Source: an uncultured Candidatus Actinomarina sp. (GTDB lineage Bacteria; Actinomycetota; Acidimicrobiia; Actinomarinales; Actinomarinaceae). From it: a stretch of DNA of 64,000 nucleotides. The translations under genes were made by a program, and so were the position numbers. The stretch spans positions 55,404-119,403 of the forward strand of contig CABYTP010000002.1 in NCBI GenBank assembly GCA_902521955.1. Direction: 5' to 3'. Positions within the stretch are counted from its first letter, which is position 1. Each line of letters begins with the position of its first letter. This document shows, piece after piece, positions 30,821 through 64,000 of this stretch. Under the pieces are notes generated by a model, which was not told the origin of the DNA, did no database searches, and saw nothing but the letters and a program-made list of their open reading frames with translations.

Positions 30821-31171
30821 TTAGATGATTTGTCCAGGTTTTCCTTCAGAATTAAAAATTTTTTCTGTAAAGTTTTGAAGATCTTTCATCCCTCCTGATA
30901 GGTTATAAGATTCAATATCTTGAGATGTTATAAAATTAGTCACCCTGCCAGATCTAGCACCCGAACGACAAACAAAAATATACTTTTCACTATCTTTAAA
31001 TCTATCCATGCTTTCAGTGATAATGCCCATAGGTATGTGCTCGGCGCTTTGGTGGTGACCTGCATTCCATTCATCTTGTTCTCGGACGTCAATAAGCTTA
31101 AAGCCATCTTGAATTAAATTTTCAAGTTGTTCTGGCTCAATAGAAGGTGTGTCACTAATACCGGATACCAC
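30821..31171 (-). CDS. single-domain rhodanese (sulfurtransferase)
   Basis: Active-site loop CRSGARS; 116 aa. Confidence 0.8.
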   Translation of the reverse strand: MVSGISDTPSIEPEQLENLIQDGFKLIDVREQDEWNAGHHQSAEHIPMGIITESMDRFKDSEKYIFVCRSGARSGRVTNFITSQDIESYNLSGGMKDLQNFTEKIFNSEGKPGQII

Positions 31172-33038: not shown

Positions 33039-34454
33039 TTAATTGCCAAAAAATATTGATGACACTTCACCAAGATAGCTAAAAATTCCTGGAAAAATTC
33101 CTGAAATGAATGTTATTAACACGGTAAAAACTCCCACTACTTTTAAGGGGCTCTCAAATTTAAAGCTAGTTTCTGAATCTACATCCTTCAACTCATCCAT
33201 CCATATAACTTTTGAAATTCTTGCATAGTACACCAAAGCTATAACAGCATTTACTGCGCCAACAATTCCTAGTGTTAATCCTATTGGTTCACCCGTACTG
33301 AGCATACTTCTGAATACAACAAATTTTGCAAACCAACCACCTAGTGGGGGTATGCCAGCCAAGGAAAAAAAGAAAATTGTTGTTAAGACTCCTGTAATAG
33401 GTGATTTTTTTGCTATTCCTCCCCATTCATAAAAATTGGTTGATCCTGCATGGTTACTAAATAATTGAACAGTAAGGAATGCACCTAAATTCATAAATGC
33501 ATAAATAATTAGATAAGTGACACTAGCAAATATTCCATCTTGAAAGTTACCCGTAATACCGGCAACAGAAAGTGGGGCTAATATAAAACCTGCCTGTGCA
33601 ATTGAAGAGTATGCAAGAAGCCTAACTGGGTTAGATTGTTGTAATGCAACAAGATTGCCAAGCGTCATAGTTAGTCCTGCAATAATCGCCAAAATTACTC
33701 CCCAGCTTTCACCAGCACTACTAAAGACTTTTGTGAGCAAAATTATAAGCGCAACAAAACCAGTTGCTTTAGAACTTACAGATAAATAAGCAGTTACGGG
33801 TAATGGAGCTCCCTCATATGTATCTGGTGCCCATGAATGAAAGGGAACAATAGAGATTTTAAATCCTATTCCCGAAATTACCAATATTGCACTTAGCAAT
33901 AACACCGGTGAGGATTGAAGTGCTCCATTAATGATAAATGTAGATATTTCAGAAAAAACAATTTTTCCAGTTAAACCATAGAGAAGTGAAAATCCGTAAA
34001 GTATCAAAGATGCTGACAAAACACCAAGTAAGAAAAATTTTATAGCACCTTCATTAGACTTCCTGTCTCCTTTTTTCCAACCAGAGAGAAGAAACATTGG
34101 AGTGGATGCTAATTCTATTCCAATAAAAATGGTGAGTAAGTCTCTAGATGAGCTGACAATGAGTGCGCCCAAGAGAGAGCTCAACAAAAGATAGTAATAT
34201 TCTCCTTGATAATATTTATCACTTTCTATGAAGTTAATTGAAAGAAGAAATGTTAAATATGTTATCAAAATGAAAAGGCCTTTAAAAATAATAGAAAATT
34301 TATCAACAACAAAACTATCTTCAAATGCATATATTGGATTTGTATAGTTAACCCACTGGACTACAAGAGGTGCAAGTGAAAATAGAGTTCCTAAAAGTGC
34401 AAAAGCAGCTACATAGTACTTCGATCTTCTCGGAAGTATTAGGTCTAAAATCAA
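33039..34454 (-). CDS. nuoN: NADH-quinone oxidoreductase subunit N (cluster 1)
   Basis: 471-aa antiporter-like subunit at the operon end. Confidence 0.85.
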   Translation of the reverse strand: MILDLILPRRSKYYVAAFALLGTLFSLAPLVVQWVNYTNPIYAFEDSFVVDKFSIIFKGLFILITYLTFLLSINFIESDKYYQGEYYYLLLSSLLGALIVSSSRDLLTIFIGIELASTPMFLLSGWKKGDRKSNEGAIKFFLLGVLSASLILYGFSLLYGLTGKIVFSEISTFIINGALQSSPVLLLSAILVISGIGFKISIVPFHSWAPDTYEGAPLPVTAYLSVSSKATGFVALIILLTKVFSSAGESWGVILAIIAGLTMTLGNLVALQQSNPVRLLAYSSIAQAGFILAPLSVAGITGNFQDGIFASVTYLIIYAFMNLGAFLTVQLFSNHAGSTNFYEWGGIAKKSPITGVLTTIFFFSLAGIPPLGGWFAKFVVFRSMLSTGEPIGLTLGIVGAVNAVIALVYYARISKVIWMDELKDVDSETSFKFESPLKVVGVFTVLITFISGIFPGIFSYLGEVSSIFFGN

Positions 34455-34519
34455 AGTACCAACTATTGTAAAAACTACAATAAGTTCAGTAGATATTGCA
34501 AAGTAATTTATAGAAATTT

Positions 34520-36088
34520 TTAACCCCCAAAAGCTTTAGATAACATTGCAATTACAGCGTCATTTGTAGCTCCGAAAATTAATTTTGGAAAGACTCCAAT
34601 TAAAATTGTCAATATAACAAGTGGAATCCAGGCTGCTAATTCATATGCGTCAGCATCGTGAAGTTCTTTATCCATCCATTCTTCTGATGGTTCTCCTAGG
34701 TTAACTCTTTGTAGCATCCACAATAAATAACCAGCTGTTAAAACTGTTCCGACTGCACCCGCCACCATAGACGTTCTGAAGACAGTAACATTTAAACCAT
34801 CTAAAGGATTGTAAGCACCTAAGAGTGCCATGAATTCACCCCAAAAACCTGCAAGACCAGGAAGTCCTAATGATGCCATAGCTGTAAAGCCAAGTAGAGC
34901 TCCTGTCTTTGGTAGAAGTTTCATATTTCCACCTAACCTTCCCATGTCTCTTGTATGGTAAGTGTGTGCCATAGATCCAGAAAGGAAAAATAACAAACCT
35001 GTAATAACCCCGTGAGCAACCATTCCAATCATTGCAGCGTTAATACCTATTGGTGTCAAAGATGCAATACCTAGCATGACAAAACCCATATGACCTACAG
35101 ATGAAAAAGCTATAAGACGTTTCAAATCAGTTTGAGCTAAGCAAGCCAATGATCCATAAATTATTCCAATAGCAGATAAAATTGCAATTGCAGGTGCCCA
35201 TGCTTTTGCTTGTTCCGGAAGAATTGGTATTGCAATTCTAACAAATCCATATGAACCGAGTTTAAGCAAAATAGCTGCAAGAAGAACTGAACCTACTGTT
35301 GGTGCAGCTGTATGAGCGTCAGGGAGCCAAGTGTGTAAAGGCCACATTGGTACCTTTACAGCAAAACCTAAAAAGAGAACTGCAAAAACAAGTGTTGCAA
35401 AAGTACCTGTAAAAGCACCTGCTGAACCCAATTCGATTAATTCAGGAATACTAAAGGTTTTATTTCCACGATAGTAAAGCCCAAGAAAACCGAGAAGCAT
35501 AAAAGCAGAGCCAAATAAAGTGAATACAAAAAACTTAATACTTGCATATAGTCTTGTCTCAATCTGATTCTTGAAGCCGGCAACTGTTCTAACAGTTCTG
35601 TCTCCCCAAATACCAATCATGAAATACATTGGTAATAGTACAATTTCAAAAAATACGAAAAATAATATCAAATCTAAGGCAACAAAAGTTCCATTCATTC
35701 CAGTTTCAAGAACAAGTATTAAAGCAAGAAACCCTTTCGGACTTTTTGGTTCTGGTAAGTGCTCTATAGAGTAAATAATTGCTAACACTGTAATAAAGGT
35801 TGACAATACTAATAATGGTAAGGAGATTCCGTCTATTCCTATTTCATAATTAGCATTAATACTCCTAATCCAAGAAATTTTATTACCTAGTTGTAACTTA
35901 TCAGCCGATGAAAAATCGAACTCCAACAATAGTAAAACGCTGAAGACAAAAGTTATTATTGAAGAAACTAATGCAAAAACTTTAATTAGAAATTCTTGGC
36001 CTTTTGGAATAAGTGTTATAACCAATGCACTGACTAGAGGAAAAAAGACTACTGCAGATAGCCCTACCCCATTTGTTAATATTTCCAA
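34520..36088 (-). CDS. nuoM: NADH-quinone oxidoreductase subunit M (cluster 1)
   Basis: 522-aa Mrp-antiporter-like subunit. Confidence 0.87.
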   Translation of the reverse strand: MEILTNGVGLSAVVFFPLVSALVITLIPKGQEFLIKVFALVSSIITFVFSVLLLLEFDFSSADKLQLGNKISWIRSINANYEIGIDGISLPLLVLSTFITVLAIIYSIEHLPEPKSPKGFLALILVLETGMNGTFVALDLILFFVFFEIVLLPMYFMIGIWGDRTVRTVAGFKNQIETRLYASIKFFVFTLFGSAFMLLGFLGLYYRGNKTFSIPELIELGSAGAFTGTFATLVFAVLFLGFAVKVPMWPLHTWLPDAHTAAPTVGSVLLAAILLKLGSYGFVRIAIPILPEQAKAWAPAIAILSAIGIIYGSLACLAQTDLKRLIAFSSVGHMGFVMLGIASLTPIGINAAMIGMVAHGVITGLLFFLSGSMAHTYHTRDMGRLGGNMKLLPKTGALLGFTAMASLGLPGLAGFWGEFMALLGAYNPLDGLNVTVFRTSMVAGAVGTVLTAGYLLWMLQRVNLGEPSEEWMDKELHDADAYELAAWIPLVILTILIGVFPKLIFGATNDAVIAMLSKAFGG

Positions 36089-36096
36089 TTTTCCTC

Positions 36097-38112
36097 CTAT
36101 ATAATAAATAAAATTAATAAACTAATTGTTACTACGCCACCTAAAAATAACATTAAATATTGTTGAGTTCTTCCAGTCTGAAGTAGTTTAACCCTTCCGC
36201 CAAAACTATCAGTACCACTTGATGACATATTCAGAAATCTATCAATACCATTTTGATCTAAATTGTTATAAACAACTCCTCCTAATAATGAAGCGATTTG
36301 GCCAACACCGTTTATAAACCTATCAATGACATTTGTATTAAATTTATCAACGGCTTTTGATATATTAATTTTTATTGGATCAATGATGAATCGAAAATAG
36401 AAATGATCTAAGTAGTATTTATTTTCTAATACTGTCCACACAGGCTGAATCTTAATTTTGTCATCTCCTGTTTCAGCACTGCCTTGCAATTGATATAAAT
36501 AATAACCCAATCCTATTCCAAGTAATCCCGCAATCAAACCACTTGATAATGCAAATAAGTCAAAGCTTTCAGGATGGTATTCGACTATTTTTGTTTTTCT
36601 GGTTGTAACCCAGTCAGTAAAGCCTGTGTAAACACCTGGTATGTTTACCCACCCAGAAGCAATAGCAAAAACTGCCAATGTTAAGAGCGGAGTAGTCATC
36701 ATATTGTGAGATTCATGAGGATGACCATGCCCTCTATATTCTCCTAAAAAAGTTAACGATACTGCTCTTGTCATATAGAAGGCAGTTATAAAAGCGCCTA
36801 AAACAGCTATGAAGAAAAAAGTAGTCTCACCTTCATGGTTAAATGAAGCAAGAATTTCATCTTTTGAGAAAAAACCTGCAAATGGAGGAAGGCCAGCCAA
36901 GGCAACGGTTCCGATAATAAAAGTTGTAAAAGTTTTTGGCATAACTTTTCTTAATCCACCCATCTCAAGCATGCTATTGCTATGGACAGCATGAATTACT
37001 GACCCAGCTCCTAAAAATAAGAGTGCTTTAAAAAAAGCATGTGTCCATAAATGGAACAATGCTGCAGTGTATGCTCCAGATCCAATTGCAGCAACCATAT
37101 AACCTAATTGACTTACCGTAGAATATGCCAAAACTTTTTTTAAGTCATCTTGAACAATAGCTATCAGGCCAGCTCCTAATAGCGTGATAACTCCAAATAG
37201 CATAACAATATCTAATGCTTCAGGAGCCATTGATTTATAGAAAGGAAACATACGTGCTAGTAAATAAACACCAGCAGTTACCATTGTTGCAGCATGCATT
37301 AATGCAGATACAGGTGTTGGACCTGCCATTGCATCAGGCAACCAAACATGAAGGGGGAATTGTGCACTTTTGCCCATGGCTCCAATAAAAAGCAAAATTG
37401 CAGCAGCAAAAGCTACCTTTGATAATTTTTCATAATCGTGTGTTGATTGGTATAGAATTTCTGAAATTCTTAATGTTCCAGTATTGAGAGCCAATATAAT
37501 GATTCCAATCATTAATCCAATATCTGCAATTTTGTTTGTTATGAAAGCTTTCATAGCTGCTGATGAATTATCTTTCTTTTCCCAGTAATGGCCAATTAAT
37601 AAATACGAGCATACTCCTACCAGCTCCCAGCCAATCAAAATTTGTATTAATGTAGGTGAGGAAACTAATACCAACATACTCCCAGCAAACAGTGTTAAAG
37701 AAGTAAAGAAGAAAGTGTATCTTATCTCACCCTCCATATAATTTGTAGCATAAATAAATACGAGCAGGGCGACAGTACCCACAACAAAATACATCATAAT
37801 TGAGAGCCCATCTACTACCCATCCAAATTCGATATCAAATTGACCTATGCTTCCAACATTGACAAAAAATTCACTTGCTACACCTTCTGTTATATGAATA
37901 AACATAAGTGAAACACTGTAAATAAATATGAGGGCAATTGTTCCAAGTGCTATCTCAGCACCTTTATATGGAAGATATTTTCCAATAAATGTAATGAATA
38001 ATGCTGCTACAAAAGGAAGGACAACTAAAGACCAAGAAAACTCAGCTAAAATACCACCATCAGTATAAACAAGTTCAGTCTCTGCTAAAAAATTAGCATC
38101 AAATTTTACCAT
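36097..38112 (-). CDS. nuoL: NADH-quinone oxidoreductase subunit L (cluster 1)
   Basis: 671 aa, antiporter-like plus a long C-terminal extension. Confidence 0.88.
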   Translation of the reverse strand: MVKFDANFLAETELVYTDGGILAEFSWSLVVLPFVAALFITFIGKYLPYKGAEIALGTIALIFIYSVSLMFIHITEGVASEFFVNVGSIGQFDIEFGWVVDGLSIMMYFVVGTVALLVFIYATNYMEGEIRYTFFFTSLTLFAGSMLVLVSSPTLIQILIGWELVGVCSYLLIGHYWEKKDNSSAAMKAFITNKIADIGLMIGIIILALNTGTLRISEILYQSTHDYEKLSKVAFAAAILLFIGAMGKSAQFPLHVWLPDAMAGPTPVSALMHAATMVTAGVYLLARMFPFYKSMAPEALDIVMLFGVITLLGAGLIAIVQDDLKKVLAYSTVSQLGYMVAAIGSGAYTAALFHLWTHAFFKALLFLGAGSVIHAVHSNSMLEMGGLRKVMPKTFTTFIIGTVALAGLPPFAGFFSKDEILASFNHEGETTFFFIAVLGAFITAFYMTRAVSLTFLGEYRGHGHPHESHNMMTTPLLTLAVFAIASGWVNIPGVYTGFTDWVTTRKTKIVEYHPESFDLFALSSGLIAGLLGIGLGYYLYQLQGSAETGDDKIKIQPVWTVLENKYYLDHFYFRFIIDPIKINISKAVDKFNTNVIDRFINGVGQIASLLGGVVYNNLDQNGIDRFLNMSSSGTDSFGGRVKLLQTGRTQQYLMLFLGGVVTISLLILFII

Positions 38113-38411
38113 TTCATCAAATCAAATTCGTTTATGTTAGCAGTTTGCCTATTTCTAAAAAGCATCAATACGATGGCTAGACCAATACCAACCTCTGCAG
38201 CAGCTATTGTAATTATAAAAATAGTAAAAATTTGGCCTTGCATTAATGAATCAGCAAGCATTGAATCAAAAATTATAAAATTAATATTTACAGCATTTAA
38301 TATCAACTCAATTGAAAGAAGAACCATGACCGCATTACGTCTAACCAGAATCCCGTAGATTCCTAATGAAAAAAGAGCGGCAGCTGTTACAAGTACTGGT
38401 TGAACTATCAT
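38106..38411 (-). CDS. nuoK: NADH-quinone oxidoreductase subunit K (cluster 1)
   Basis: 101 aa, 3 TM; conserved Glu in ...AAAEVGIGLA.... Confidence 0.88.
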   Translation of the reverse strand: MIVQPVLVTAAALFSLGIYGILVRRNAVMVLLSIELILNAVNINFIIFDSMLADSLMQGQIFTIFIITIAAAEVGIGLAIVLMLFRNRQTANINEFDLMKW

Positions 38412-38926
38412 ATTTGATCCTCATCAACAAGGGCTTCATCCTTTCTCGCTAAAGTTATTCCGCCAATTAATGCGGCTAATAAAACAAACGACACTATTTC
38501 AAATGGAAAAACAAAACGACTTAATAAAATTTCTCCTAGAAGTTCAGTTGAAGACCCAGATGTAATTACGATTTCACCATCAAATCCATTAATAAGGATA
38601 TAAGAAAAGAGCAAAAATATTGCACCCGATATTGTGGCACCAATTAATTTATTCTTATCATTATCTAACTCAGCATTTTTACCCAATGGAGCTCTTGTAA
38701 TCATTACCCCAAAAAGGAATAGAACTATAACTGCTCCGATGTAAACAAGGACAAGTACCAATGCCACAAATTGTGTGGATAAAAGCAAGAAAAGAGTTGC
38801 AGTAAGTGCAAGGGTGAAAACTAATGATATTGCTGCGTGAATGACATTTGAAGTTGTAACTACTCTTGCTGCTGAGAATAGAAGAAGTAATAAAGTAAAG
38901 TATGTAACGACTTCGTAAATTTCCAT
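38408..38926 (-). CDS. nuoJ: NADH-quinone oxidoreductase subunit J (cluster 1)
   Basis: 172-aa membrane subunit; operon position. Confidence 0.82.
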   Translation of the reverse strand: MEIYEVVTYFTLLLLLFSAARVVTTSNVIHAAISLVFTLALTATLFLLLSTQFVALVLVLVYIGAVIVLFLFGVMITRAPLGKNAELDNDKNKLIGATISGAIFLLFSYILINGFDGEIVITSGSSTELLGEILLSRFVFPFEIVSFVLLAALIGGITLARKDEALVDEDQI

Positions 38927-38927
38927 T

Positions 38928-39413
38928 TTAACTTTCTAAGCCTTGAGTATCAGGTACAGTTTTTAACCAATCGTCTAAACGTTCCTTATTGTGAAGCATG
39001 TCACCCATATTGAATTCAGAATACTCGTACTCAGGTGTCCAAAATAAAGCATCGAAAGGACAAACCTCAACACAGATTCCACAATACATACATAGTGCAT
39101 AATCAATATCAAATCTATCTAGAACAGCTCTACTTCTTTGTCTACCTCCAGGTTTTGAAGGGGGTTGTAATTCTTTATGTCCCTCAATATAAATACACCA
39201 ATCGGGGCATTGTCTTGCACACAACATACAACTAGTGCATGCTTCTTGATCTAAAGCAATAACTCCTCGTGCTCTTGGTGCAACTTTTTCCTTTTCAAAT
39301 GGATAATTTACATTTGGTTTTGAGTGAAATGGAGATAGGGTTTTAAGCATATTGACAATTACTATCTTTATTCCAATTAAGAATCCGGGAACTTTTGGTT
39401 TAAACGTTTTCAT
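38928..39413 (-). CDS. nuoI: NADH-quinone oxidoreductase subunit I (short, 161 aa; 2x[4Fe-4S])
   Basis: Two CxxCxxCxxxCP ferredoxin motifs (CTSCMLCARQCP, CMYCGICVEVCP). Confidence 0.9.
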   Translation of the reverse strand: MKTFKPKVPGFLIGIKIVIVNMLKTLSPFHSKPNVNYPFEKEKVAPRARGVIALDQEACTSCMLCARQCPDWCIYIEGHKELQPPSKPGGRQRSRAVLDRFDIDYALCMYCGICVEVCPFDALFWTPEYEYSEFNMGDMLHNKERLDDWLKTVPDTQGLES

Positions 39414-40384
39414 TAGAATCCAACTTTCATTATTGCAGTTACAAGAATATTAATTAAAGATGCAGGAATAAGTATTTTCCAAGCGAGGTTTTGAAGTTGA
39501 TCTTCTCGAAATCTTGGCTGTGACCACCTAACAGCTACCAATATAAAACCTAAAATAGCAGTCTTTGTTAATAAAACAACAGGTCCATAAAAATTTACCC
39601 ATTCAGTTGGCAAAAGTGGAACATGGTAACCTCCAAGAAATAAAGTCGAAGCAATTGCACATAAAATAAACATATTCATATATTCAGAAATATAAAAAAT
39701 AAGAAATCTAATTCCAGAGTATTCTGTCATAAATCCCATTGTCAGTTCTGATTCACCAATTGGCATATCAAAGGGCACTCTCATCATTTCAGCTGTTGCT
39801 GCAACCATAAATATCAGAAAGCCAACTATCTGGCCACCAACAACAAAAGGTACTCCCCATTCAATTTGTTTTTCTACAATCCCGACTAATGACATTGTTT
39901 CAGCTTGAATAACAACTCCAACAACAGCAAGTATCAGTGGAAGTTCGTACGCGATGAGCTGTCCTGCTGCTCTTAAACCACCCATAAGGGAATATTTGTT
40001 TGCTGATGACCATCCAGCAGTTAATACACCTATAGTTCCTAAAGAGCTTATGGCAAGTGCAAAGAAAACCCCTAATTCTAGATCTGCAACAACCAATGTA
40101 GGGCTCATTGGGACTACAGCAAAAAGCGCAACACAAGAAACCATAACATAAGCCGGAGCCCACTTAAATACTGGTCTGTCCACCTCAGTTGGGATTATGT
40201 CTTCTTTTTGAACAAATTTAAGTATTTCAGCAAGAGGAAATATGAAACCTCTAAGTCCTACATGTAATGGACCCGGTCTTCTCTGCATCCATGAAGCACC
40301 TTTAACATCCATAATAGTAAAAATGATTGCTCCATTTAATGCAGCAAGTGCAAGAAATCCTACCTTGACAAAGACTTCTGTCAT
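39413..40384 (-). CDS. nuoH: NADH-quinone oxidoreductase subunit H (cluster 1)
   Basis: 323-aa NuoH/ND1 family protein (…EYSGIRFLIFYISEYMNMF…). Confidence 0.9.
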   Translation of the reverse strand: MTEVFVKVGFLALAALNGAIIFTIMDVKGASWMQRRPGPLHVGLRGFIFPLAEILKFVQKEDIIPTEVDRPVFKWAPAYVMVSCVALFAVVPMSPTLVVADLELGVFFALAISSLGTIGVLTAGWSSANKYSLMGGLRAAGQLIAYELPLILAVVGVVIQAETMSLVGIVEKQIEWGVPFVVGGQIVGFLIFMVAATAEMMRVPFDMPIGESELTMGFMTEYSGIRFLIFYISEYMNMFILCAIASTLFLGGYHVPLLPTEWVNFYGPVVLLTKTAILGFILVAVRWSQPRFREDQLQNLAWKILIPASLINILVTAIMKVGF

Positions 40385-41577
40385 CTGTCCACATCTCCCA
40401 ATACAAAATCTAAACTACCCATTATGGCAATTAAATCTGGTAGTAAAGCGCCCTCGAGTAGCAAAGGTAAAATAGAAAGATTACTAAATGAAGCTGTTCG
40501 AACTTTAAGCCTATATGGTCCCAACCCTCCATCTGACACTATGTAGTAGCCCATTTCTCCTTTTGGATTTTCTGCCCTTACGTAAGTACGTCCTTTAGGG
40601 ACTTTTATAACTTTAGGTACCTTAGCTTGTAGTGGACCAGAAGGCATTGAGTCAATTGCTTGCAACACTATTTTTGCCGATTCAATCATTTCCTTGACTC
40701 TGACATCCCATCTATCATAACAATCTCCGTTCTCTCCAATAGGAATATCATATTCAAATTGATCATATGGCAAATAATCCATTTGAGTTCTTAAATCAGA
40801 CTTCACTCCTGAAGCCCTAAGTATTGGGCCGGATACTCCAAAGGCTTCTGCAGTCTCAGCAGATAAGATTCCAACATTTTTTGTTCTTTTTTTAAAAACT
40901 TCATTACCACCGATTAAATTTTGAAATTGATCAGCAGCCTCTATTACTTTTTGCATTGCTACTTTTGTATCTCTATAAAATCCAGCAGGTAAATCCTGGA
41001 TATCTTTTTTTGTGGTAGGGCCTGATCCAGCTGCTGGTTTTACTCCACCTATTCGATTAAAGTTTGGATGAAAGCGGCCACCAGTTACTGACTCAATTAA
41101 ATCTAAAACTCTTTCCCTGTCTTCCATTGCATAAAAAATTGGAGTCAATGCACCAACTTCAAGAGCGTACGCTCCATTAAATACAAAATGTGATGAAATT
41201 CTTGCCATCTCATTAAGAATTAACCTGATATGTTTGGCCCTTTCAGGTACTTCGATTTCCATTAATCTTTCTGCACCAGCAATAAATGGGATTTCATTAG
41301 AGAAACCAGCAACCCAATCTATGCGGTTAACAAGTGTAGTGATTTGAGGGTACGATCTCACTTCCGCAAGTTTTTCATAGCCACGATGCATATACCCAAG
41401 AACGGGTTTTACATCATGCACCTTTTCACCATCTACTTTTGCGACCAGTCTAAGTACTCCATGAGTTGATGGGTGTTGAGGACCTATGTTGAGCGTCATG
41501 TCTTCAGTTTCTATCTCTACAGATACAGATGCCTCTGAAAAATTATTAAAATTTTGGGGGTCTAATGTATTAACCAT
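40381..41577 (-). CDS. nuoD: NADH-quinone oxidoreductase subunit D (cluster 1)
   Basis: 398 aa, ...GPQHPSTHGVLRL...GYMHRGYEKL... 49-kDa-subunit signature. It directly abuts nuoH, with no nuoEFG between. Confidence 0.92.
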   Translation of the reverse strand: MVNTLDPQNFNNFSEASVSVEIETEDMTLNIGPQHPSTHGVLRLVAKVDGEKVHDVKPVLGYMHRGYEKLAEVRSYPQITTLVNRIDWVAGFSNEIPFIAGAERLMEIEVPERAKHIRLILNEMARISSHFVFNGAYALEVGALTPIFYAMEDRERVLDLIESVTGGRFHPNFNRIGGVKPAAGSGPTTKKDIQDLPAGFYRDTKVAMQKVIEAADQFQNLIGGNEVFKKRTKNVGILSAETAEAFGVSGPILRASGVKSDLRTQMDYLPYDQFEYDIPIGENGDCYDRWDVRVKEMIESAKIVLQAIDSMPSGPLQAKVPKVIKVPKGRTYVRAENPKGEMGYYIVSDGGLGPYRLKVRTASFSNLSILPLLLEGALLPDLIAIMGSLDFVLGDVDR

Positions 41578-42115
41578 CTACTGACTCATCACTTTCTGAT
41601 TCTTCTGGCATTCCTTCTACGTCAACTTCGCCAGGCCAAGGCTTAACTTCTCTACTAATTAATTCAAAAGACTTCAGCATAGGATTTCCCTCGTATCCAT
41701 CAGGAAGATATAATTTTTCAAGATTTGGATGGTTTTCAAAATTGATTCCAAACATTTCATATGCTTCTCTCTCATGCCAATTAGCACCTGCATATATTTC
41801 TACGAGAGAAGTAATCTTTGGCTCTGATTTATTAATGGTGGTTGATACAGTAACTAAATTGTTATTAGAAACATTAGACAAACATGTAATGATTTCAAAA
41901 CTTGGTGAAACCGTCTCCTTTGGTGCTTCTCCAGTGGAAACTTCATTATCCCAATCTATTGCAGATAGCCATGAGAAAAATTTTAAATCAAATTCATCTT
42001 TAAGTTTTTGATGTGTCTCGATCCACTTAGATGATTCAACCTTGATGTTGATTGTTTCAAATGCTACATCTGTCTTAATAAAATTTTCTTGTATTTTACT
42101 TAAAAATTCTTCCAT
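41570..42115 (-). CDS. nuoC: NADH-quinone oxidoreductase subunit C (cluster 1)
   Basis: 181-aa 30-kDa-subunit family protein with an acidic C-terminus. Confidence 0.85.
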   Translation of the reverse strand: MEEFLSKIQENFIKTDVAFETINIKVESSKWIETHQKLKDEFDLKFFSWLSAIDWDNEVSTGEAPKETVSPSFEIITCLSNVSNNNLVTVSTTINKSEPKITSLVEIYAGANWHEREAYEMFGINFENHPNLEKLYLPDGYEGNPMLKSFELISREVKPWPGEVDVEGMPEESESDESVDG

Positions 42116-42116
42116 C

Positions 42117-42614
42117 TTATATTGGCTCTGTTTGGACTTCTGTCCATTTTTCTTTCATGTCTTCTCCACGAATTTTTTTCTGAAGAAGAATAATTCCTTC
42201 CTGAAGTGCTTCTGGCCTTGGAGGACATCCGGGAACATAAACATCTACAGGAATTAATTGGTCAACTCCCTTTGTGACTGAATAAGAATCCCAATATGGA
42301 CCTCCACTATTTGAACAGGAACCCATAGAAATAACATACTTTGGTTCTGGCATTTGATCGTAGAGCCTTTTAACTGATGGGGCCATTTTATCTGTTACTG
42401 TTCCAGCAACAATCATAAAATCGGCTTGTCTCGGAGATGCGGGTAATGGAATGACTCCTAATCTCATAAAATCGTGTCTCGGCCCACTTACTGCCATAAC
42501 CTCAATTGCACAGCACGCTAACCCGAACTGAAAATACCAAAGTGAGTATGATCTAGCCCAATTAAATACAGATGATATTGGCTTTGGAAGACCGAATTTA
42601 TCAACTATTCCCAT
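42117..42614 (-). CDS. nuoB: NADH-quinone oxidoreductase subunit B (cluster 1)
   Basis: N2-cluster Cys ligands (CCAIE..., [13 protein letters not shown]). Confidence 0.92.
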
Positions 42615-42970
42615 TTGAGTACATCCTTTCTAATAGCGTATATGAGACCAATTAATAAGATGAATATAAAAACAAACATCTCAATTAATCCAAAATAGCC
42701 AAGTTTTTCCAGGTTAATAGCCCATGGAAATATAAATACTGCTTCTACATCAAAAATTACAAATAGTAAACCAAATATATAATACCTAACATATGTTTGG
42801 CTCCATCCGGAACCTACTGGGTCTACACCACACTCATAAGTTTGGAGCTTTTCTGCATAAGGCTTATTAGGCCTAAGGACAGATGCTACACCAAGTAAAA
42901 GCACGACCAAAAAAAGTCCAAATCCTAGCACTGCTGCTATGGTCACATAATCTTGAAAATAAGAAATCAT
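42605..42970 (-). CDS. nuoA: NADH-quinone oxidoreductase subunit A (cluster 1)
   Basis: 121-aa, 3-TM ND3 family protein; first gene of the operon. Confidence 0.88.
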
Positions 42971-45889: not shown

Positions 45890-46084
45890 ATGGATAAACA
45901 ACTTATTTTCTCTGAAATAGAATCAATTATGTTTGATTTAGAAACATTGATCAAATCTCTTGCTAATTCACGAGAATATATAGCAGGTGAAGATTTTTCA
46001 AGAGCATCAGGAAAACTTTCAGAATTAGAGATTGAGCTACAATCCCTAGCCGGTAGAGTAGCCTATATTAAATCAAACCTTTGA
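45890..46084 (+). CDS. hypothetical small soluble protein (64 aa)
   Basis: ORF divergent from the heliorhodopsin gene; predicted helical/coiled (…LSELEIELQSLAGRVAYIKSNL); no known motif. Confidence 0.3.
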   Translation: MDKQLIFSEIESIMFDLETLIKSLANSREYIAGEDFSRASGKLSELEIELQSLAGRVAYIKSNL

Positions 46085-49874: not shown

Positions 49875-49903
49875 TTTTATTTAACCTTTTGTTTTGCTTA
49901 ACT

Positions 49904-57122: not shown

Positions 57123-57257
57123 CTATTCCTCTAAATTTTCATTCTTTTGTTTATTTCTAAGCCAGGTAAGTAATAACGCAGGAATTAAAAACATCAGCAT
57201 TTCATCCCAGCCACCTTGGTGGTGCATTACTGGGGGTGGAATAATCTTAATTAACAT
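57123..57257 (-). CDS. candidate 44-aa membrane peptide translationally coupled to nuoN (cluster 2)
   Basis: MLIKIIPPPVMHHQGGWDEMLMFLIPALLLTWLRNKQKNENLEE. Its ATG overlaps the nuoN stop (TAATG). Too short for the ORF track. Confidence 0.3.
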   Translation of the reverse strand: MLIKIIPPPVMHHQGGWDEMLMFLIPALLLTWLRNKQKNENLEE

Positions 57258-58729
57258 TACAGATAGTTTTCCACCATCCAACGAGTAATATTTACAAGCG
57301 TGTTAGGTAATAGTCCTAAATAAATAGTTAAAAATGCAAGCGTACTAATTAATAATTTATCAGAATTTTGTATTTTGATTTGCTCAATTGTATTGTCTGT
57401 TTTTTCAATTGCAGCAACCCAAATAGGTTTTAAGTAAAAGTAAAACCCGGCAACGGTAGAAAGCATCAATACTGTGACTAATATATATTTTTCATATGAC
57501 CAAAGATTTGTAATTAAAATAAATTTTGATACAAAACCGCTAGTCAATGGAAGTCCTGCAATTCCAAGCATAAATATTGAAAAAGTAATAGTTAGAAATT
57601 TATTTTCTTTAAATAATCCAGATAAATTACTAATTGCAAAATTTGAACTAAGTTGACCACTAATTATTGAAAAGATTGTAAACACACCAATAAGCTGAAT
57701 AATGTACGTTGCAAGATAAAAGATAGATGCACTAATTCCATATACTCCAAACGATATACCTGAAAGAATAAATCCAGATTGTATAACTCCACTGTAAGCT
57801 ATCAATCTCTTAAGATCTAATTGATTAGTTGCAAATAATGCACCCAATAATACTGAGAGAATTATGACAGCAGTAAAAAATAGATCGAACTTATCAATTA
57901 TAAAATTCAACGAAACAGCTGAGAGTCTAGCTAAAACAATAAATGATGAAACTTTTGCTACTGAGGCCATGTAACCCACATAACCAGTTGGAGAACCTTG
58001 GTAAACATCAGGAGCCCATGCTTGAAATGGAGCTGCCGCAACTTTAAACAACAATCCAACAATTATTAAAATTAGCCCAATAAGACTTGTCAGTGGAACA
58101 TTTTCAGGGCCAATAAAGCTTATTGCTATGCTAGTTTCATAAACACCACTTATAGATAAGGAAACATAAACCAATGCGATTCCGTAAATTAATATACAGG
58201 AGGCGAGTGACCCCAAAAGGAAATATTTTAATGATGCCTCATTACTGAGCTGATCTCCCCTGTTTAAGCCAGCAAGAGCATAGAGACTTATAGAGCCAAT
58301 TTCTAGACCTATAAATAACATAATAAAATTTTCAGAATCAACCATCAGTAAAAATCCTGAAGCTGACATTAAAATTAAAATTAAAGCTTCAGTTGTTTTG
58401 TTATCTATTTGAGAAGATGTTTTCCAAAAAGAATTAAAAGTAAACAACAAAACTAAAACTATTAACACATTACCTACTAGAGCAAATTCGTCTAAGAGAA
58501 TCTTTTCAGAAAAATAAGAAGAGACTCCATCAGAGAGAAATAAGCCAAATTTTAGAAATACAGCAAACACGGTAGACAAAATTCCAAATAAAGTAACGTA
58601 TTTTTTTACAAATGTAGGTGTGGAAATAGTAATTGTTACAAAAAGAAGTATCAGAGCTGTTGCAAGAAGAGTTAATGTTGGGCCAATAACAACAAAGTTG
58701 AATCCTAAAATATCAGAAATTCCTGTCAT
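57257..58729 (-). CDS. nuoN: NADH-quinone oxidoreductase subunit N (cluster 2)
   Basis: 490-aa antiporter-like subunit. Confidence 0.85.
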   Translation of the reverse strand: MTGISDILGFNFVVIGPTLTLLATALILLFVTITISTPTFVKKYVTLFGILSTVFAVFLKFGLFLSDGVSSYFSEKILLDEFALVGNVLIVLVLLFTFNSFWKTSSQIDNKTTEALILILMSASGFLLMVDSENFIMLFIGLEIGSISLYALAGLNRGDQLSNEASLKYFLLGSLASCILIYGIALVYVSLSISGVYETSIAISFIGPENVPLTSLIGLILIIVGLLFKVAAAPFQAWAPDVYQGSPTGYVGYMASVAKVSSFIVLARLSAVSLNFIIDKFDLFFTAVIILSVLLGALFATNQLDLKRLIAYSGVIQSGFILSGISFGVYGISASIFYLATYIIQLIGVFTIFSIISGQLSSNFAISNLSGLFKENKFLTITFSIFMLGIAGLPLTSGFVSKFILITNLWSYEKYILVTVLMLSTVAGFYFYLKPIWVAAIEKTDNTIEQIKIQNSDKLLISTLAFLTIYLGLLPNTLVNITRWMVENYL

Positions 58730-60213
58730 TTTGTACTCCTGAATAATGATATTGTTTCACTTAAATTTCCTGCTTCTTGAATAACAAAGCTCTCAATATA
58801 ACTTGGAAAAATCCCTATAAATAACATTAGTAAAACCAAAGGGAAAATAGATACCGTTTCTCTTAAATTCAAGTCTTGTAAATTTTTATTTTCTTCGTTT
58901 GATAAAGGTCCTGTAAATACTCTTTGATATGCCCACAGCATATAAATAGCAGCTAAGACAACGCCAAAAGCAGCTATTGAAGTTAACACTTTATAAGAAT
59001 TGTAGCTTCCCATCAAAATCATAAACTCTCCTACGAAACCATTCAATCCTGGTAGACCTATCGATGCAAAAGATGTGAAGAGAAAGATTGCAGCATATCT
59101 AGGCATTGTTATCTTAACTCCACCAAAAGAGCTTATATTTCTTGTATGTCTTCTTTCGTATATAAACCCAACCAACATAAATAACGCACCAGCAGTTATT
59201 CCATGATTGATCATTTGAATAATAGCTCCCTCTATACTTAAAAACTCTCCAGCTGATATACCAAGCATTACATATCCCATATGACTAATTGAGGAATATG
59301 CAATGAGTTTTTTGATATCTATTTGAGCTATCGCAACTACAGCACCATATATAATTCCAATTACAGACAACACTGCGACTAAATTTTTATATTCAAGGAA
59401 ACCTTCTGTAAAGAAAGGTATCGAAACTCTAAGAATCCCATAGGCCCCTACTTTTAATAGAATACCTGCTAATAAAATACTTCCTGCAGTTGGAGCTTCA
59501 ACGTGTGCATCCGGTAGCCATGTGTGTAGCGGAAAAATAGGAACTTTAATAAGAAAGCCAAAAGTAAATAGTAGAAATAAAGTCTTAGATTGTGAAGCAC
59601 TTATTTGAAGAGTAGAAAGTGTTTCAAAATCAACTGCTAATCTTGCATTAACTCCATAGCTAATGACAGCTGTGTAAACGGTACCTATAAAGATAAATAT
59701 TGAACCAAAGACTGTATATAAAATAAATTTAATTGTTGCATATCTTCTATTATCACCACCCCAAATTCCCATTAAAAAATACATAGGTATCAAAAGTGCT
59801 TCAAAGAAAATAAATAACGAAATTAAATCTCCGCTAATAAATACTCCATTAATTGCAAAATGTAAAGTCAGAATAGATCCAATAAAACCCTTGCTCTCAC
59901 TATGTTCTTTGCCAATAGACAATAAAGAAAGTAGCACAAGCAAAGAGCTTAATAATAAAAGCAAAGTTGACATTCCGGATATGCCAAGGTTTATTTCTAA
60001 TCCATAGACTTGAATCCACTCAAACTTTAGCAGAATTTGGAAGTCTGATTTTGAATAATCACTAAACAGGATGTACATAGATTGTGTAAACGTTATTAAG
60101 GAAAATACAATTCCAATTGGTCTAAAAAGCTCTTTTCTAGTATTTGGAATAGAAAATATTAGAAAAGCACTAAAAAGGGGTACCAATAAAAGAGCAAGTA
60201 TAATTCCAGTCAC
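58726..60213 (-). CDS. nuoM: NADH-quinone oxidoreductase subunit M (cluster 2)
   Basis: 495-aa antiporter-like subunit. Confidence 0.87.
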   Translation of the reverse strand: MTGIILALLLVPLFSAFLIFSIPNTRKELFRPIGIVFSLITFTQSMYILFSDYSKSDFQILLKFEWIQVYGLEINLGISGMSTLLLLLSSLLVLLSLLSIGKEHSESKGFIGSILTLHFAINGVFISGDLISLFIFFEALLIPMYFLMGIWGGDNRRYATIKFILYTVFGSIFIFIGTVYTAVISYGVNARLAVDFETLSTLQISASQSKTLFLLFTFGFLIKVPIFPLHTWLPDAHVEAPTAGSILLAGILLKVGAYGILRVSIPFFTEGFLEYKNLVAVLSVIGIIYGAVVAIAQIDIKKLIAYSSISHMGYVMLGISAGEFLSIEGAIIQMINHGITAGALFMLVGFIYERRHTRNISSFGGVKITMPRYAAIFLFTSFASIGLPGLNGFVGEFMILMGSYNSYKVLTSIAAFGVVLAAIYMLWAYQRVFTGPLSNEENKNLQDLNLRETVSIFPLVLLMLFIGIFPSYIESFVIQEAGNLSETISLFRSTK

Positions 60214-62138
60214 TGTGCCACCAAGGGTGTAAAGATGAAAAGCGATATTAACAATACTAAAAATAAGCCGAAATAAACAACATAATTTCTAACTAACCCT
60301 GTTTGCGTTGCTGAGGTAATTCTTGAAGTTTTTCCAAATGCACTAGAAATAAAATTAACAGATCCATCTATTATCAATCCATCAACAATAACAGCTACTT
60401 TTCTTGAAACGTTTTTCATCCCAGATACAAAAAATACATTTCCAAATTTATTCAAATATAGGACATTGCTTGAAAGATCTTTTACAAGGTTAATTGGGGA
60501 CTCAAGTTTAAATTTTTCTAAGTTAATCCTTTTATGTAATTCAAATCCAAATATAAGAAAAGCAATAATTAGTCCTGTAAATCCTGCTCCTATAGAGATA
60601 ACAGCTAATACAACTAGTGCTATGCCCTCAGGAAGATGAGTTACTTCAACATTCTCAAGTGTTTCATGAAGAACTTTTTCTAAACCATGAAAGAAGGGTG
60701 TATTAATAAAGCCAATAAAAATTGAGAATATTCCTAAAAGAATTAATGGCCTTGTCATAGCTTTTGGTGCCTCTTGAACTTCTGAGTGATCTATTCCATT
60801 ATCCTTTTCAAAAATTAATAACCAGTGCCTACCCATATAAAAAGCTGTAAGTAAAGCTGCACCAAGTGTCAAAGACCAAAATAAATAATACATTATAGAA
60901 AACACCAATTCGTTTTGCATACCTGCCTTAGCAAACACTGATGCAAGTATTTCGTCTTTTGACCAAAAACCAGCCAAGGGAGGAATTCCAGAAATAGCTA
61001 AAGTCCCGATTCCCATCATTCCAGCAGTAATAGGCATTCTTTTTCTTAATCCACCCATTTTTCTCATATCTTGTTCATGATGCATTGAATGAATTACTGC
61101 ACCAGCCCCGAGAAATAGGAGTGCTTTAAAAAAGGCATGTGTAACTAAGTGAAAAATTGCTGCAACGTATGCACCTGCTCCTATTGCGATAAACATAAAA
61201 CCAAGTTGTGAAATAGTTGAGTAGGCTAATACTTTCTTGATATCATATTGATTCATCGCTGAAAATGCTGCTATTAATGCAGTGAGTAAACCAAAAGAAA
61301 TTATTACAATGCTCACAGTTACAGAATGTTGAAGCATAGGAGAGATTCGTACAAGCATAAAAACTCCAGCTGTGACCATTGTCGCTGCGTGGATTAAAGC
61401 ACTTGCTGGGGTGGGTCCTTCCATAGCATCAGGTAACCAACTAAATAAGGGAAATTGAGCAGACTTTCCAAAAGCTCCTAGAAGTAAAAATAAAGAAATA
61501 GTTGTAATGGTATTCTCACTTATATTGGTTGAACTCTGCATGACTGTATGAAAATCAAAAGTATTGAATGTATTTAAAATAATCATCAATCCAATCAAAA
61601 ATCCAAAATCTCCAATTCTGTTAATAACAAATGCTTTATTGCCTGCTTTAGCAGCAGCTGGTTTTTGGGACCAAAATGATATTAATAAGTAAGAACTTAG
61701 CCCAACTAATTCCCATCCAAAAAACATAACTAAAAAGTTTGATGACATAACTAAAAGCAACATGGAAAAGACAAAGAAGTTAAAATACACAAAATAATTA
61801 CTGTGTTTTTCATCTTCCTCCATATATGAAGTTGAAAAAAGTTGAATTACAAATGAAAGACCCGTTACTAAAAGCAACATGACACCCGATAAGCCATCAA
61901 GAGTGAACCCTATTGTAATATCTGGTGTTCTAGTCCATTGGTAAAGAGTTATGCTTATAGGTTTAAATTTATCTAGTGCAAAGGTAACAAAAGCAAAAAA
62001 CGAAATCGCAAATGACAAAAGTGCGCTATTTAATGTAAAAAAGTTGGTAACTAACTCATTAAATATTCTTCTATTTAAAAATAAAAAAATAGCAGTTAGA
62101 AGTGGAAGAAATATTGGAAGTATAAATAAAAAATCCAA
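60210..62138 (-). CDS. nuoL: NADH-quinone oxidoreductase subunit L (cluster 2)
   Basis: 642-aa antiporter-like subunit plus a C-terminal extension. Confidence 0.88.
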   Translation of the reverse strand: MDFLFILPIFLPLLTAIFLFLNRRIFNELVTNFFTLNSALLSFAISFFAFVTFALDKFKPISITLYQWTRTPDITIGFTLDGLSGVMLLLVTGLSFVIQLFSTSYMEEDEKHSNYFVYFNFFVFSMLLLVMSSNFLVMFFGWELVGLSSYLLISFWSQKPAAAKAGNKAFVINRIGDFGFLIGLMIILNTFNTFDFHTVMQSSTNISENTITTISLFLLLGAFGKSAQFPLFSWLPDAMEGPTPASALIHAATMVTAGVFMLVRISPMLQHSVTVSIVIISFGLLTALIAAFSAMNQYDIKKVLAYSTISQLGFMFIAIGAGAYVAAIFHLVTHAFFKALLFLGAGAVIHSMHHEQDMRKMGGLRKRMPITAGMMGIGTLAISGIPPLAGFWSKDEILASVFAKAGMQNELVFSIMYYLFWSLTLGAALLTAFYMGRHWLLIFEKDNGIDHSEVQEAPKAMTRPLILLGIFSIFIGFINTPFFHGLEKVLHETLENVEVTHLPEGIALVVLAVISIGAGFTGLIIAFLIFGFELHKRINLEKFKLESPINLVKDLSSNVLYLNKFGNVFFVSGMKNVSRKVAVIVDGLIIDGSVNFISSAFGKTSRITSATQTGLVRNYVVYFGLFLVLLISLFIFTPLVAQ

Positions 62139-62140
62139 AA

Positions 62141-62449
62141 CTATCCTCTTGATACATTTAATACGTCGACGGAGGCTGAGGATTGTTTTCTAAATATTGA
62201 AACAATTATTGCTAAGCCGACCACAACTTCAGCAGCTGCTACAACTAAAACAAAAAATACTGCAATTTGTCCATCTATCTGACCAAAGTGCTTGGATGCA
62301 GCAATAAAAGTTAGATTTACAGCATTTAACATTAATTCAATGCACATAAACATTATTAATGCATTTTTTCGAATCATCATGCCAAAAAATCCAATAGAAA
62401 AAAGAATTGCAGCTAGTGTTAAGTACCAATCTGTAGTGACCTCAAGCAT
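62141..62449 (-). CDS. nuoK: NADH-quinone oxidoreductase subunit K (cluster 2)
   Basis: 102 aa, 3 TM; ~45 % identity by eye to the cluster-1 NuoK. Confidence 0.88.
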
Positions 62450-62969
62450 CTTTATTCCTTATTTTTGAATCATATGCTAAAGCTATTGCAGCAGCGGTAG
62501 CTACAATCAACAAGATAGATATAATCTCGAAAGGGAATATCCAAGTAGTAAAGAGTGTTCCTGCAATTAACTGTGGTGTTCCCTCAACAACATATTCAAC
62601 TGCTGGAAACCAGAGGTTCCAACTAAATTCTGAATTTACCGCTACATAAGCCAATAGAGACATCAAAATTAAGAAAACTCCACTTACCAGAAAGGTTTGA
62701 CCTTTAATTGAATCTGAAGTTTGTTCTTTTTTGTCCACACCTATCATCATTATCACAAAAAGAAATAATGTCATGACTGCACCTGCGTAAACTAGCATCT
62801 GCACCATTGCTACAAATGTTGCATTTAAAGTTATATAAATTATTGCAAGAGAAACTAATGTCATGACTAAGCCCATGGCATTATGAACAGGATTTTTTGC
62901 AAAGACTACTATGAGTGCTCCGATAATCAATAAAGAAGCAGGGAGGAAAAAAATTAAGAGTTCAAACAA
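62442..62969 (-). CDS. nuoJ: NADH-quinone oxidoreductase subunit J (cluster 2)
   Basis: 175-aa membrane subunit. Confidence 0.82.
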
Positions 62970-63584
62970 TTACTCTTCCTCCAGGGCTTGACCTTTTTCT
63001 GGATCTTTTTTCCCAACACCTAGTGAGCCAGACCAATTAACAATATTCTCAAAATTGGGATTTCCATTTGGAGAAGTTGCTCTCATCCAGCCATCAGATG
63101 TCTGTAGATCTGCAATATTTGTGAGTTTTGTCTGCTCCTCATGTGTGTTAGGTGTACCATCATCGTTTACAACTAAAACAGACTTATCAAAAATTGCTTC
63201 AGACCTATTAGCTACACTCATTTCAAATAATGAGGTCATTGTTATTGCTTCTGTTGGACATGCTTCTACACAAAGTGCACAATAAATACATCTAAGCATG
63301 TTGATTTCATATATAAAACCGTATCTTTCGCCAGGACTTACTGGGTTGTCTTCTGGGTTGTCTTCACCTCTAACATAAATACATTGGGCAGGACAAACCC
63401 CAGCACAAAGTTCACAACCAATACATTTCTCCATTCCGTCTTCATATTTATTTAAAACATGTCGACCATGAAATCTTTGTGGCTTTTCTCTAAATTCTTT
63501 TGGATACTTATCTGTTACAGATTTTCTAAAAAGTTCTTTGAAAGTAACTTTTAAACCTTTAAATAAACCAAAACTTTCACTCAT
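62970..63584 (-). CDS. nuoI: NADH-quinone oxidoreductase subunit I with ~45-aa C-terminal extension (cluster 2)
   Basis: CIGCELCAGVCP and CIYCALCVEACP ferredoxin motifs; 204 aa. Confidence 0.9.
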   Translation of the reverse strand: MSESFGLFKGLKVTFKELFRKSVTDKYPKEFREKPQRFHGRHVLNKYEDGMEKCIGCELCAGVCPAQCIYVRGEDNPEDNPVSPGERYGFIYEINMLRCIYCALCVEACPTEAITMTSLFEMSVANRSEAIFDKSVLVVNDDGTPNTHEEQTKLTNIADLQTSDGWMRATSPNGNPNFENIVNWSGSLGVGKKDPEKGQALEEE

Positions 63585-63587
63585 AAT

Positions 63588-64000
63588 TTAACTCCAAGGT
63601 AATCCAAACTCTCTCAAGCCAAGAACAACTGCGGATAAAATCAACCAAACTAAAGATGCGGGAATTAATCTTTTCCATCCTAATTCCATTAGTTGATCAT
63701 ATCTAAGTCTTGGAAGGGTAGCTCTTATCCATACAAAAATAAAAAGGAGGCTGAAAGTTTTTACACCTAGCCATATTATTGGCATTATGGAAGACAAAAA
63801 TGGAGGTAGGAAATTATCAAATGTAGGTCCTAGCCATCCACCTAAGAAAAATGTTGCTGTTATTGCACACATGTTAAACATATTTATATATTCAGCTAAA
63901 AAAAACATCGCAAATCTAAATCCAGAATATTCAGTATGAAATCCTCCGACTAACTCTTGTTCAGCTTCAACTAAATCGAATGGTGCTCTATTTACTTCTG
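63588..64000 (-). CDS. nuoH: NADH-quinone oxidoreductase subunit H, C-terminal part (cluster 2; continues past window end)
   Basis: The reading frame stays open upstream of the track's Met (…EVNRAPFDLVEAEQELVGGFHTEYSGFRFAMFFLAEY…), matching the NuoH core. Confidence 0.88.
   Translation of the reverse strand, partial: EVNRAPFDLVEAEQELVGGFHTEYSGFRFAMFFLAEYINMFNMCAITATFFLGGWLGPTFDNFLPPFLSSIMPIIWLGVKTFSLLFIFVWIRATLPRLRYDQLMELGWKRLIPASLVWLILSAVVLGLREFGLPWS

Follow-up and report, generated by a model that had tools for sequence, protein, structure and literature searches.

A genome of about 1 Mb, to our knowledge among the most streamlined known, is what Candidatus Actinomarina has to work with, and nevertheless two complex I gene clusters are found in it; the question raised by this locus is what the smaller of them does, and from where its enzyme would receive electrons. 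The DNA analysed here is a stretch of 64,000 nucleotides (hereafter, the window) from an uncultured Candidatus Actinomarina sp. (contig CABYTP010000002.1, positions 55,404 to 119,403), which contains an eleven-gene nuo operon without nuoE, nuoF, and nuoG, the genes of the NADH dehydrogenase module (N-module), and, further along, part of another nuo operon. We refer to them as operons 1 and 2, and to their products as Nuo1 and Nuo2 (NuoD1, NuoD2, and so on). About 1% of the ~1-Mb genome is kept for operon 1 beside a full complex I, and as so streamlined a genome retains it, the enzyme must do something beyond NADH-linked respiration. Our reading is that operon 1 would encode a complete and functional N-module-less complex I-like enzyme, NuoABCDHIJKLMN, the Acidimicrobiia form of the ancient actinobacterial "second nuo", beside the canonical 14-subunit enzyme; judging from the sequences, we give it a probability of roughly 0.55.

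The operon itself is already published for Candidatus Actinomarinales. In the available text of Lopez-Perez et al. 2020 (mSystems; PMC7771536), a truncated nuo paralogue without EFG is described, with a heliorhodopsin gene always between both nuo operons, and that of Bulzu et al. 2021 (bioRxiv 10.1101/2021.02.01.429150) lists a conserved set of afuABC, heliorhodopsin, 11-subunit complex I, NDUFAF7, htpX, rhodanese, and adenosine kinase, with a 14-subunit copy nearby. It is the same locus, without structural differences, and our annotation reproduces the published gene string, including the pfkB kinase after the rhodanese. What is added here is the residue-level integrity of the subunits, evidence against the analogy with the F420-dependent Fpo enzyme, and a recurrent Trp at a catalytic Tyr position of NuoD; these residue-level observations are modest additions.

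Gene Set and Junctions of Operon 1

The initial annotation, made from the letters of the window, had proposed eleven genes, nuoA to nuoD followed directly by nuoH to nuoN. This was borne out by NCBIfam and Pfam, as the eleven open reading frames (ORFs) belong to one Nuo subunit family each, with curated cutoffs passed by NuoB, NuoD, NuoK, NuoL, NuoM, and NuoN, and all of them are encoded on the minus strand (Table 1). It had also claimed that the nuoD stop and the nuoH start overlap and thus exclude nuoEFG. In agreement with this, the C-terminus of NuoD reads GDVDR followed by TGA, and the ATG of nuoH shares the sequence ATGA with that stop (4-nt overlap), so there is no space for nuoEFG at the D–H junction. 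Between nuoA and nuoM, neighbouring genes overlap by as much as 10 nt or stand up to 8 nt apart; nuoM and nuoN are separated by 65 nt.

In addition, no NuoE-, NuoF-, or NuoG-like sequence was detected by tblastn, with E. coli and Actinomarina proteins as queries, either in the window or across 80 related loci. These loci came from a NuoD scan over one genome per species and comprise flanks of up to 10 kb on each side, where the contig permits. Regarding NuoI, the initial annotation had pointed to its short form; its length of 161 amino acids (aa) stands, but it is not diagnostic, as the NuoI of Paracoccus, which has a full complex I, is of 163 aa. Along the region the GC content stays even, at the level of the surroundings. 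A scan for promoters and terminators gave sites fewer or no more numerous than in shuffled sequence, being thus uninformative on operon boundaries.

Conservation, Selection, and Residue-Level Integrity

The loci closest to operon 1, with NuoD identities of 79–98%, come from Candidatus Actinomarina (OCS155, class Acidimicrobiia), assembled from single cells or metagenomes, and the remaining loci of the 80 (NuoD identity 68–74%) belong mostly to other Acidimicrobiia. The order ABCDHIJKLMN was identical in all 80 independent assemblies, wherever the contig reaches far enough. An assembly artefact at the D–H junction, which the initial annotation had named as what would undo its proposal, is therefore excluded, since the junction is constant in the 80 assemblies.

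The 11 genes all bear the mark of strong purifying selection, with ratios of nonsynonymous to synonymous substitution (dN/dS) of ~0.03–0.12 against the orthologues of two other Actinomarina lineages, a comparison in which synonymous sites are saturated. In the same comparison, the downstream methyltransferase and rhodanese genes gave values of 0.18–0.35.

Each subunit was aligned with its E. coli counterpart and with its operon-2 paralogue (residue numbers are those of E. coli unless stated). The four N2 cysteines of NuoB are all kept, and both CxxCxxCxxxCP motifs of NuoI are present in an alignment to bovine TYKY. Among the residues of the proton path, those conserved include E144, K229, H254, H334, H338, K342, K399, and D400 in NuoL (D563 being variable); E144, K234, K265, and E407 in NuoM; E133, K217, K247, and K395 in NuoN; E36 and E72 in NuoK; and D79 and E81 in NuoA. 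NuoJ conserves Y59 and presents Leu at E55, and NuoH conserves E157, D213, E220, and E228, with Ile at E216 (in the loop) and Asp at E36. Thus, apart from these exceptions, the eleven subunits of the complex I core, the Fe-S ligands of N2 and NuoI, and the charged residues of the proton path are all in place. With the ligands for N6a, N6b, and N2 intact, operon 1 is predicted to encode an intact redox-driven proton pump.

A Second, Canonical nuo Operon

A clearly different second nuo operon had been noted at 57.2 kb, and it is indeed of another type. The window contains its 3' part only, but in four near-identical contigs (L081–L084) the complete operon 2 is a 14-gene nuoABCDEFGHIJKLMN, with nuoE, nuoF, and nuoG between nuoD and nuoH. 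These contigs were recovered by an exact-protein look-up with NuoK2, and the exact look-up with NuoI2 gave no match; one of them (L083) is the same contig as that of the 98% NuoD1 match (L002). In all four contigs, a called ORF of 44 aa lies directly 3' of the operon-2 nuoN (positions 15193–15327), with no Pfam match on record.

The identity between paralogues is of 28–52% overall (NuoB 52%, NuoD 40%, NuoC 37%, NuoI 29%), and NuoD1 and NuoD2 fall in different groups of a neighbour-joining tree of NuoD representatives. Such identities point to an ancient divergence rather than a recent duplication, and by these sequence comparisons the two operons are ancient paralogues. The only nuoEFG genes found lie inside operon 2, between nuoD2 and nuoH2, and therefore pair with it by position; no set pairing with operon 1 was found in the window or in the related loci. 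Operon 1, which has no NuoE, NuoF, or NuoG of its own, hence does not correspond to a canonical 14-subunit NADH:quinone oxidoreductase. The proposal of a specialised paralogous complex without NADH module is supported by its gene set, by its divergence, and by the location of nuoEFG within operon 2.

A Tryptophan at the Quinone Site of NuoD

In two independent alignments, Trp88 of NuoD1 (codon TGG, positions 41314–41316) occupies the position of Tyr87 in T. thermophilus Nqo4, equivalent to Y273 in E. coli NuoCD. Concerning the two ligands of the quinone head group (His38 and Tyr87 in T. thermophilus numbering), the His is present in NuoD1 as His39 and the Tyr is replaced by Trp. We know of no characterised complex I that lacks the proton-donating Tyr at this site of NuoD. 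The quinone site of operon 1 would thus be chemically atypical, because Trp88 takes the place of this proton-donating residue.

This replacement is not a singularity of the sequence analysed. Trp was found at that site in 81 of the 81 operon-1 NuoD orthologues, whereas the paralogue NuoD2 shows the canonical RMDY. As the homology search with NuoD1 returned Actinomarina sequences only, the wider view comes from a search of 50%-identity cluster representatives, where ~30 of the 150 nearest to NuoD1 carry Trp. They include a Nocardioidaceae/Propionibacteriales group that forms one clade with Actinomarina NuoD1 in the neighbour-joining tree, and the closest representatives outside this Trp clade carry the canonical Tyr. 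Separately, Trp appears in sequences of Methanofastidiosia and Methanonatronarchaeales, and in roughly one third of the haloarchaeal NuoCD from one search. Over the whole sample, examples of Trp-type NuoD are L001–L080, P0125, P0137, P0167, and P0399, among others. The archaeal Trp-type NuoD and NuoCD are taken here as parts of N-module-less enzymes, the gene context having been examined for the actinobacterial cases only. An adaptation to menaquinone was considered and rejected as a sufficient explanation of the Trp, as NuoD2 retains Tyr in the same cell.

No report of a Trp variant of NuoD was found in the paper library searched, and the absence applies to that library. The Trp-for-Tyr replacement, the difference between paralogues at a target arginine described below, and a residue-level check are likewise not mentioned in the available text of the Actinomarinales papers; within these sources, neither of the two sequence differences was found in print. 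The recurrent Trp offers a defined target for mutational or structural studies in a tractable relative such as Streptomyces or a haloarchaeon.

The NDUFAF7-Like Methyltransferase and Its Putative Target

Three nucleotides after nuoN lies a gene for a protein of the NDUFAF7/MidA family of methyltransferases, a membership supported by its Pfam match (PF02636) and by its likeness to solved NDUFAF7 homologues; its sequence matches in the PDB are 4f3n (COG1565), 5ztz (the Dictyostelium NDUFAF7 homologue), and 1zkd. The gene is located 3' of nuoN in those Actinomarina loci (L001–L039) long enough to show it, an adjacency already annotated in the available text of Bulzu et al. 2021 (bioRxiv 10.1101/2021.02.01.429150). 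In three Nocardioidaceae-type genomes, a PF02636 gene was also found adjoining a stand-alone Trp-type nuoD or ~3–4 kb from it (L086, 8596–9396; L087, 1054–2034; L088, 2033–3007), so the pairing of nuoD with a PF02636 methyltransferase occurs in a second actinobacterial class.

In mitochondria, NDUFAF7 dimethylates the Arg of the HRGxEK motif of NDUFS2 (PMC3829151). NuoD1 has this arginine (Arg65) within HRGxEK, and NuoD2 has Thr at that place (HTG). The methyltransferase is a probable accessory factor of the operon-1 complex, and its putative activity would probably be the methylation of NuoD1 Arg65 during assembly. Going further, one could imagine that the Trp-type quinone site and the dedicated NDUFAF7-like methyltransferase mark out a subclass of N-module-less complex I with a mechanism of its own, whose quinone or acceptor chemistry, or direction, would be unlike that of every characterised complex I. 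Such a subclass would take in the actinobacterial "Nuo2" (the second nuo of that phylum) and, through convergent evolution, many enzymes of haloarchaea and some of methanogens; we consider this whole proposal tentative and rather doubtful.

Relation to Known Eleven-Subunit Enzymes

The nearest parallel is the second nuo system of Streptomyces, which consists of nuoA2, nuoB2, nuoD2, and nuoH2 to nuoN2, with nuoD2 apart from the rest (PMC3765725). As in Actinomarina, an actinobacterial genome here carries an N-module-less copy in addition to a 14-gene operon, but the eleven genes of Actinomarina are contiguous, nuoC and nuoD included, whereas in Streptomyces nuoD2 is found elsewhere and nuoC2 is not listed. 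The clustering of NuoD1 with the stand-alone Trp-type NuoD of Nocardioidaceae/Propionibacteriales, in a tree built without a Streptomyces sequence, matches this layout with a separate nuoD2.

The same gene set is shared with the bacterial 11-subunit enzymes (Moparthi and Hagerhall 2011; for Desulfitobacterium hafniense and a review of such enzymes, PMC11238625), for which the favoured working model has ferredoxin as donor. However, the hosts of these enzymes are strict anaerobes with a single copy, whereas Actinomarina lives aerobically in the sea as a photoheterotroph and has a full complex I as well.

Cyanobacterial and chloroplast NDH-1 (ferredoxin:plastoquinone oxidoreductase) has the same eleven core subunits and likewise lacks NuoEFG, and its NdhH is the second-best solved match to NuoD1 (321.6 bits). 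In contrast, none of the cutoffs of the Ndh equivalog models was reached (scores against cutoffs: NdhH 350/583, NdhI 58/302, NdhB 352/569, NdhC 94/145, NdhJ 68/175, NdhF 490/963), and no genes for NdhL-S or V-type subunits, or for the ferredoxin-docking NdhS/O/V, were seen in the neighbourhood of the operon. Archaeal Fpo/Fqo is homologous in its core architecture and also lacks NuoEFG, but the operon-1 scores lie under every Fpo cutoff, and neither an FpoF nor an FpoO gene was found in the operon or its available flanks (up to 10 kb on each side). By curated thresholds, operon 1 belongs to neither cyanobacterial NDH-1 nor archaeal Fpo; its lineage is the actinobacterial "second nuo".

Electron Donor and Alternative Explanations

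In the enzyme that we propose, a soluble low-potential carrier, encoded separately, would hand electrons to the exposed distal cluster of NuoI, from which they would pass through N6a and N6b (NuoI) and N2 to the membrane quinone, a transfer that would drive proton pumping. The donor of 11-subunit complex I-like enzymes is a long-standing question. Our best guess is that a ferredoxin or flavodoxin-type protein would be the most likely one, because of the analogy with cyanobacterial NDH-1, with FpoF-less Fpo, and with the Desulfitobacterium model, ferredoxin being the current working model for 11-subunit enzymes (PMC11238625). Several observations weigh against this picture. Neither in Actinomarina nor in other Acidimicrobiia does the operon have a conserved redox gene beside it, be it for a ferredoxin, a flavodoxin, or another protein, and no donor gene is linked to it in the available flanks of any of the 80 loci. 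The Trp at the catalytic Tyr position casts doubt on a canonical-style quinone reduction. As for the accessory factor, the methyltransferase gene does not adjoin the operon in Acidimicrobiia other than Actinomarina, and in a genome with ~2-bp intergenic spacers adjacency is weak evidence of functional linkage. The recurrent neighbours in other Acidimicrobiia (a GNAT acetyltransferase, a GAF protein, a LytR-type protein, IspD, and a septum-formation protein) were also considered, without any of them being a candidate donor.

The donor proposed in Lopez-Perez et al. 2020 was F420, by analogy with Methanosarcina Fpo, and the available text of that paper reports F420 biosynthesis and F420-dependent oxidoreductases in Actinomarinales genomes, as well as identities to M. 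mazei Fpo that reach 35% (PMC7771536); its supplementary tables cover the flexible genomic island only and do not contain core ferredoxin or F420 genes. In our analysis, the Fpo models match every operon-1 subunit, but weakly and with scores far under the cutoffs (FpoC 76/220, FpoD 335/600, FpoH 236/475, FpoI 51/180, FpoJ 33/110, FpoK 92/145, FpoL 373/1050), lower than those obtained with bacterial Nuo models; the best solved relative of NuoD1 is Thermus Nqo4, and an identity of ~35% to Fpo is no more than that to any complex I. Moreover, F420H2 oxidation by Fpo requires FpoF, and the archaeal Fpo enzymes without it are thought to use ferredoxin; no FpoF-like gene was seen in the 80 loci over the flanks covered. 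We thus regard the F420 donor idea as weakly supported and an F420H2:quinone oxidoreductase as an unlikely identity for the enzyme. A split canonical enzyme, in which the NuoEFG of operon 2 would also dock on the 11-subunit core to give two isoenzymes that both depend on NADH but differ in their membrane and quinone modules, could find some basis in the distance between the operons (~14 kb), in the conservation of this arrangement in Actinomarina, and in the speculation about subunit exchange between the two nuo systems of Streptomyces (PMC3765725). However, nuoEFG are embedded between nuoD2 and nuoH2, and those subunits to which NuoG would need to bind are poorly alike between the copies, as seen above for NuoI, NuoC, and NuoD (29%, 37%, and 40% identity). 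The NuoD1 lineage also groups apart from the 14-subunit type in trees, and relatives with eleven subunits exist in organisms without NADH-oxidising subunits, such as haloarchaea, all of which makes the sharing of NuoEFG quite unlikely.

A further possibility is that the enzyme is not a forward quinone reductase, but uses another acceptor or works in reverse, with the proton gradient generated by rhodopsin and respiration driving electrons from quinol to a low-potential carrier. It would account for Trp88 in all orthologues while the paralogue keeps the proton-donating Tyr, and for the same change in Methanofastidiosia, Methanonatronarchaeales, and many haloarchaeal NuoCD (taken here as parts of N-module-less enzymes), and it would suit a rhodopsin photoheterotroph with a heliorhodopsin gene always near. 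On the other hand, His39, the N2 ligands, and nearly all the coupling residues checked are canonical, as ordinary quinone chemistry predicts, and no evident need for reverse electron flow has been demonstrated in an aerobic heterotroph; we therefore consider it improbable. Finally, one could take operon 1 for a remnant, produced by decay or by the assembly, of a nuo duplicate that lost nuoEFG; the absence of these genes is the only point in favour. The dN/dS values of 0.03–0.12 in all 11 genes, the intact frames, Fe-S ligands, and nearly all key residues, the order kept in 80 assemblies across the class, the 28–52% identity between paralogues, and a GC content like that of the surroundings make such a remnant extremely improbable, and on the selection, frames, conserved residues, and constant order, a pseudogene or artefact was rejected.

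Genomic Neighbourhood

The features of the window are collected in Table 1.

Table 1. Features of the window in and around operon 1, with the evidence for each assignment.
Feature	Position	Strand	Evidence and remarks
Operon 1, nuoA-B-C-D-H-I-J-K-L-M-N	42970 down to 33039	minus	ORFs; NCBIfam/Pfam
nuoA, 121 aa	42605..42970	minus	First gene of the operon; NCBIfam NuoA models, best E 9e-39
nuoB, 165 aa	42117..42614	minus	Carrier of Fe-S cluster N2; NF005012 subfamily model, 232.8 bits (cutoff 116)
nuoC, 181 aa	41570..42115	minus	Pfam Complex1_30kDa, E 8.5e-33; NCBIfam NuoC family
nuoD, 398 aa	40381..41577	minus	NF004739 NuoD, 412 bits (cutoff 360)
nuoH, 323 aa	39413..40384	minus	NCBIfam NuoH models, E 5e-85
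nuoI, 161 aa	38928..39413	minus	Two-[4Fe-4S] ferredoxin-like subunit; TIGR01971, E 6e-26, under the curated cutoff of 113 bits
nuoJ, 172 aa	38408..38926	minus	NCBIfam NuoJ models
nuoK, 101 aa	38106..38411	minus	NF004320, 96.7 bits (cutoff 57)
nuoL, 671 aa	36097..38112	minus	Antiporter-like subunit; NF005141, 613.9 bits (cutoff 556)
nuoM, 522 aa	34520..36088	minus	Antiporter-like subunit; TIGR01972, 539.9 bits (cutoff 263.8)
nuoN, 471 aa	33039..34454	minus	Antiporter-like subunit, last nuo gene; TIGR01770, 357.2 bits (cutoff 332.6)
NDUFAF7/MidA-family methyltransferase, 339 aa	32016..33035	minus	Pfam PF02636, E 1.2e-25, 90.8 bits (cutoff 23.3)
Operon 2, 3' part: nuoN, M, L, K, J, I, partial H	57257..64000	minus	ORFs; runs off the window
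htpX and single-domain rhodanese	30821-31991	minus	3' of the methyltransferase
Type I phosphodiesterase/alkaline-phosphatase-superfamily gene	43051-44139	plus	PF01663; directly upstream of nuoA
Heliorhodopsin gene	45029-45832	minus	PF18761, E 4e-88
Ferric-iron ABC transporter, ferrochelatase, and DtxR-type repressor	46073-51987		Between both nuo operons
Ferrochelatase	50006-51025		
DtxR-type iron-dependent repressor	51304-51987		
Apparent ribosomal-protein, rpoB/rpoC, and elongation-factor cluster	651-27559	minus	Gene size and order alone

The heliorhodopsin gene, whose position between the nuo operons is already published, shows 84–99% conservation wherever an Actinomarina locus includes it and, with a dN/dS of ~0.02, is among the most constrained of the region. 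The same stretch between operons contains the three components of the ferric-iron ABC transporter (ATPase, permease, and binding protein) together with the ferrochelatase and the iron-dependent repressor, and in other Acidimicrobiia the ABC transporter is likewise found near the 11-gene operon, but inverted. The PF01663 gene occupies the same place in most of the 80 related loci, even in distant Acidimicrobiia, where its identity is of 23–27%; with a single exception, the loci that have the gene carry it on the strand opposite to nuoA.

On the other side of operon 1, htpX (encoding a membrane zinc protease) and the rhodanese gene are kept in the Actinomarina loci that are long enough, and both are read as accessory factors of the complex in the available text of Bulzu et al. 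(bioRxiv 10.1101/2021.02.01.429150). Beyond them, the minus strand carries what appears, from gene size and order, to be a cluster of ribosomal-protein, rpoB and rpoC (1130 and 1304 aa), and elongation-factor genes.

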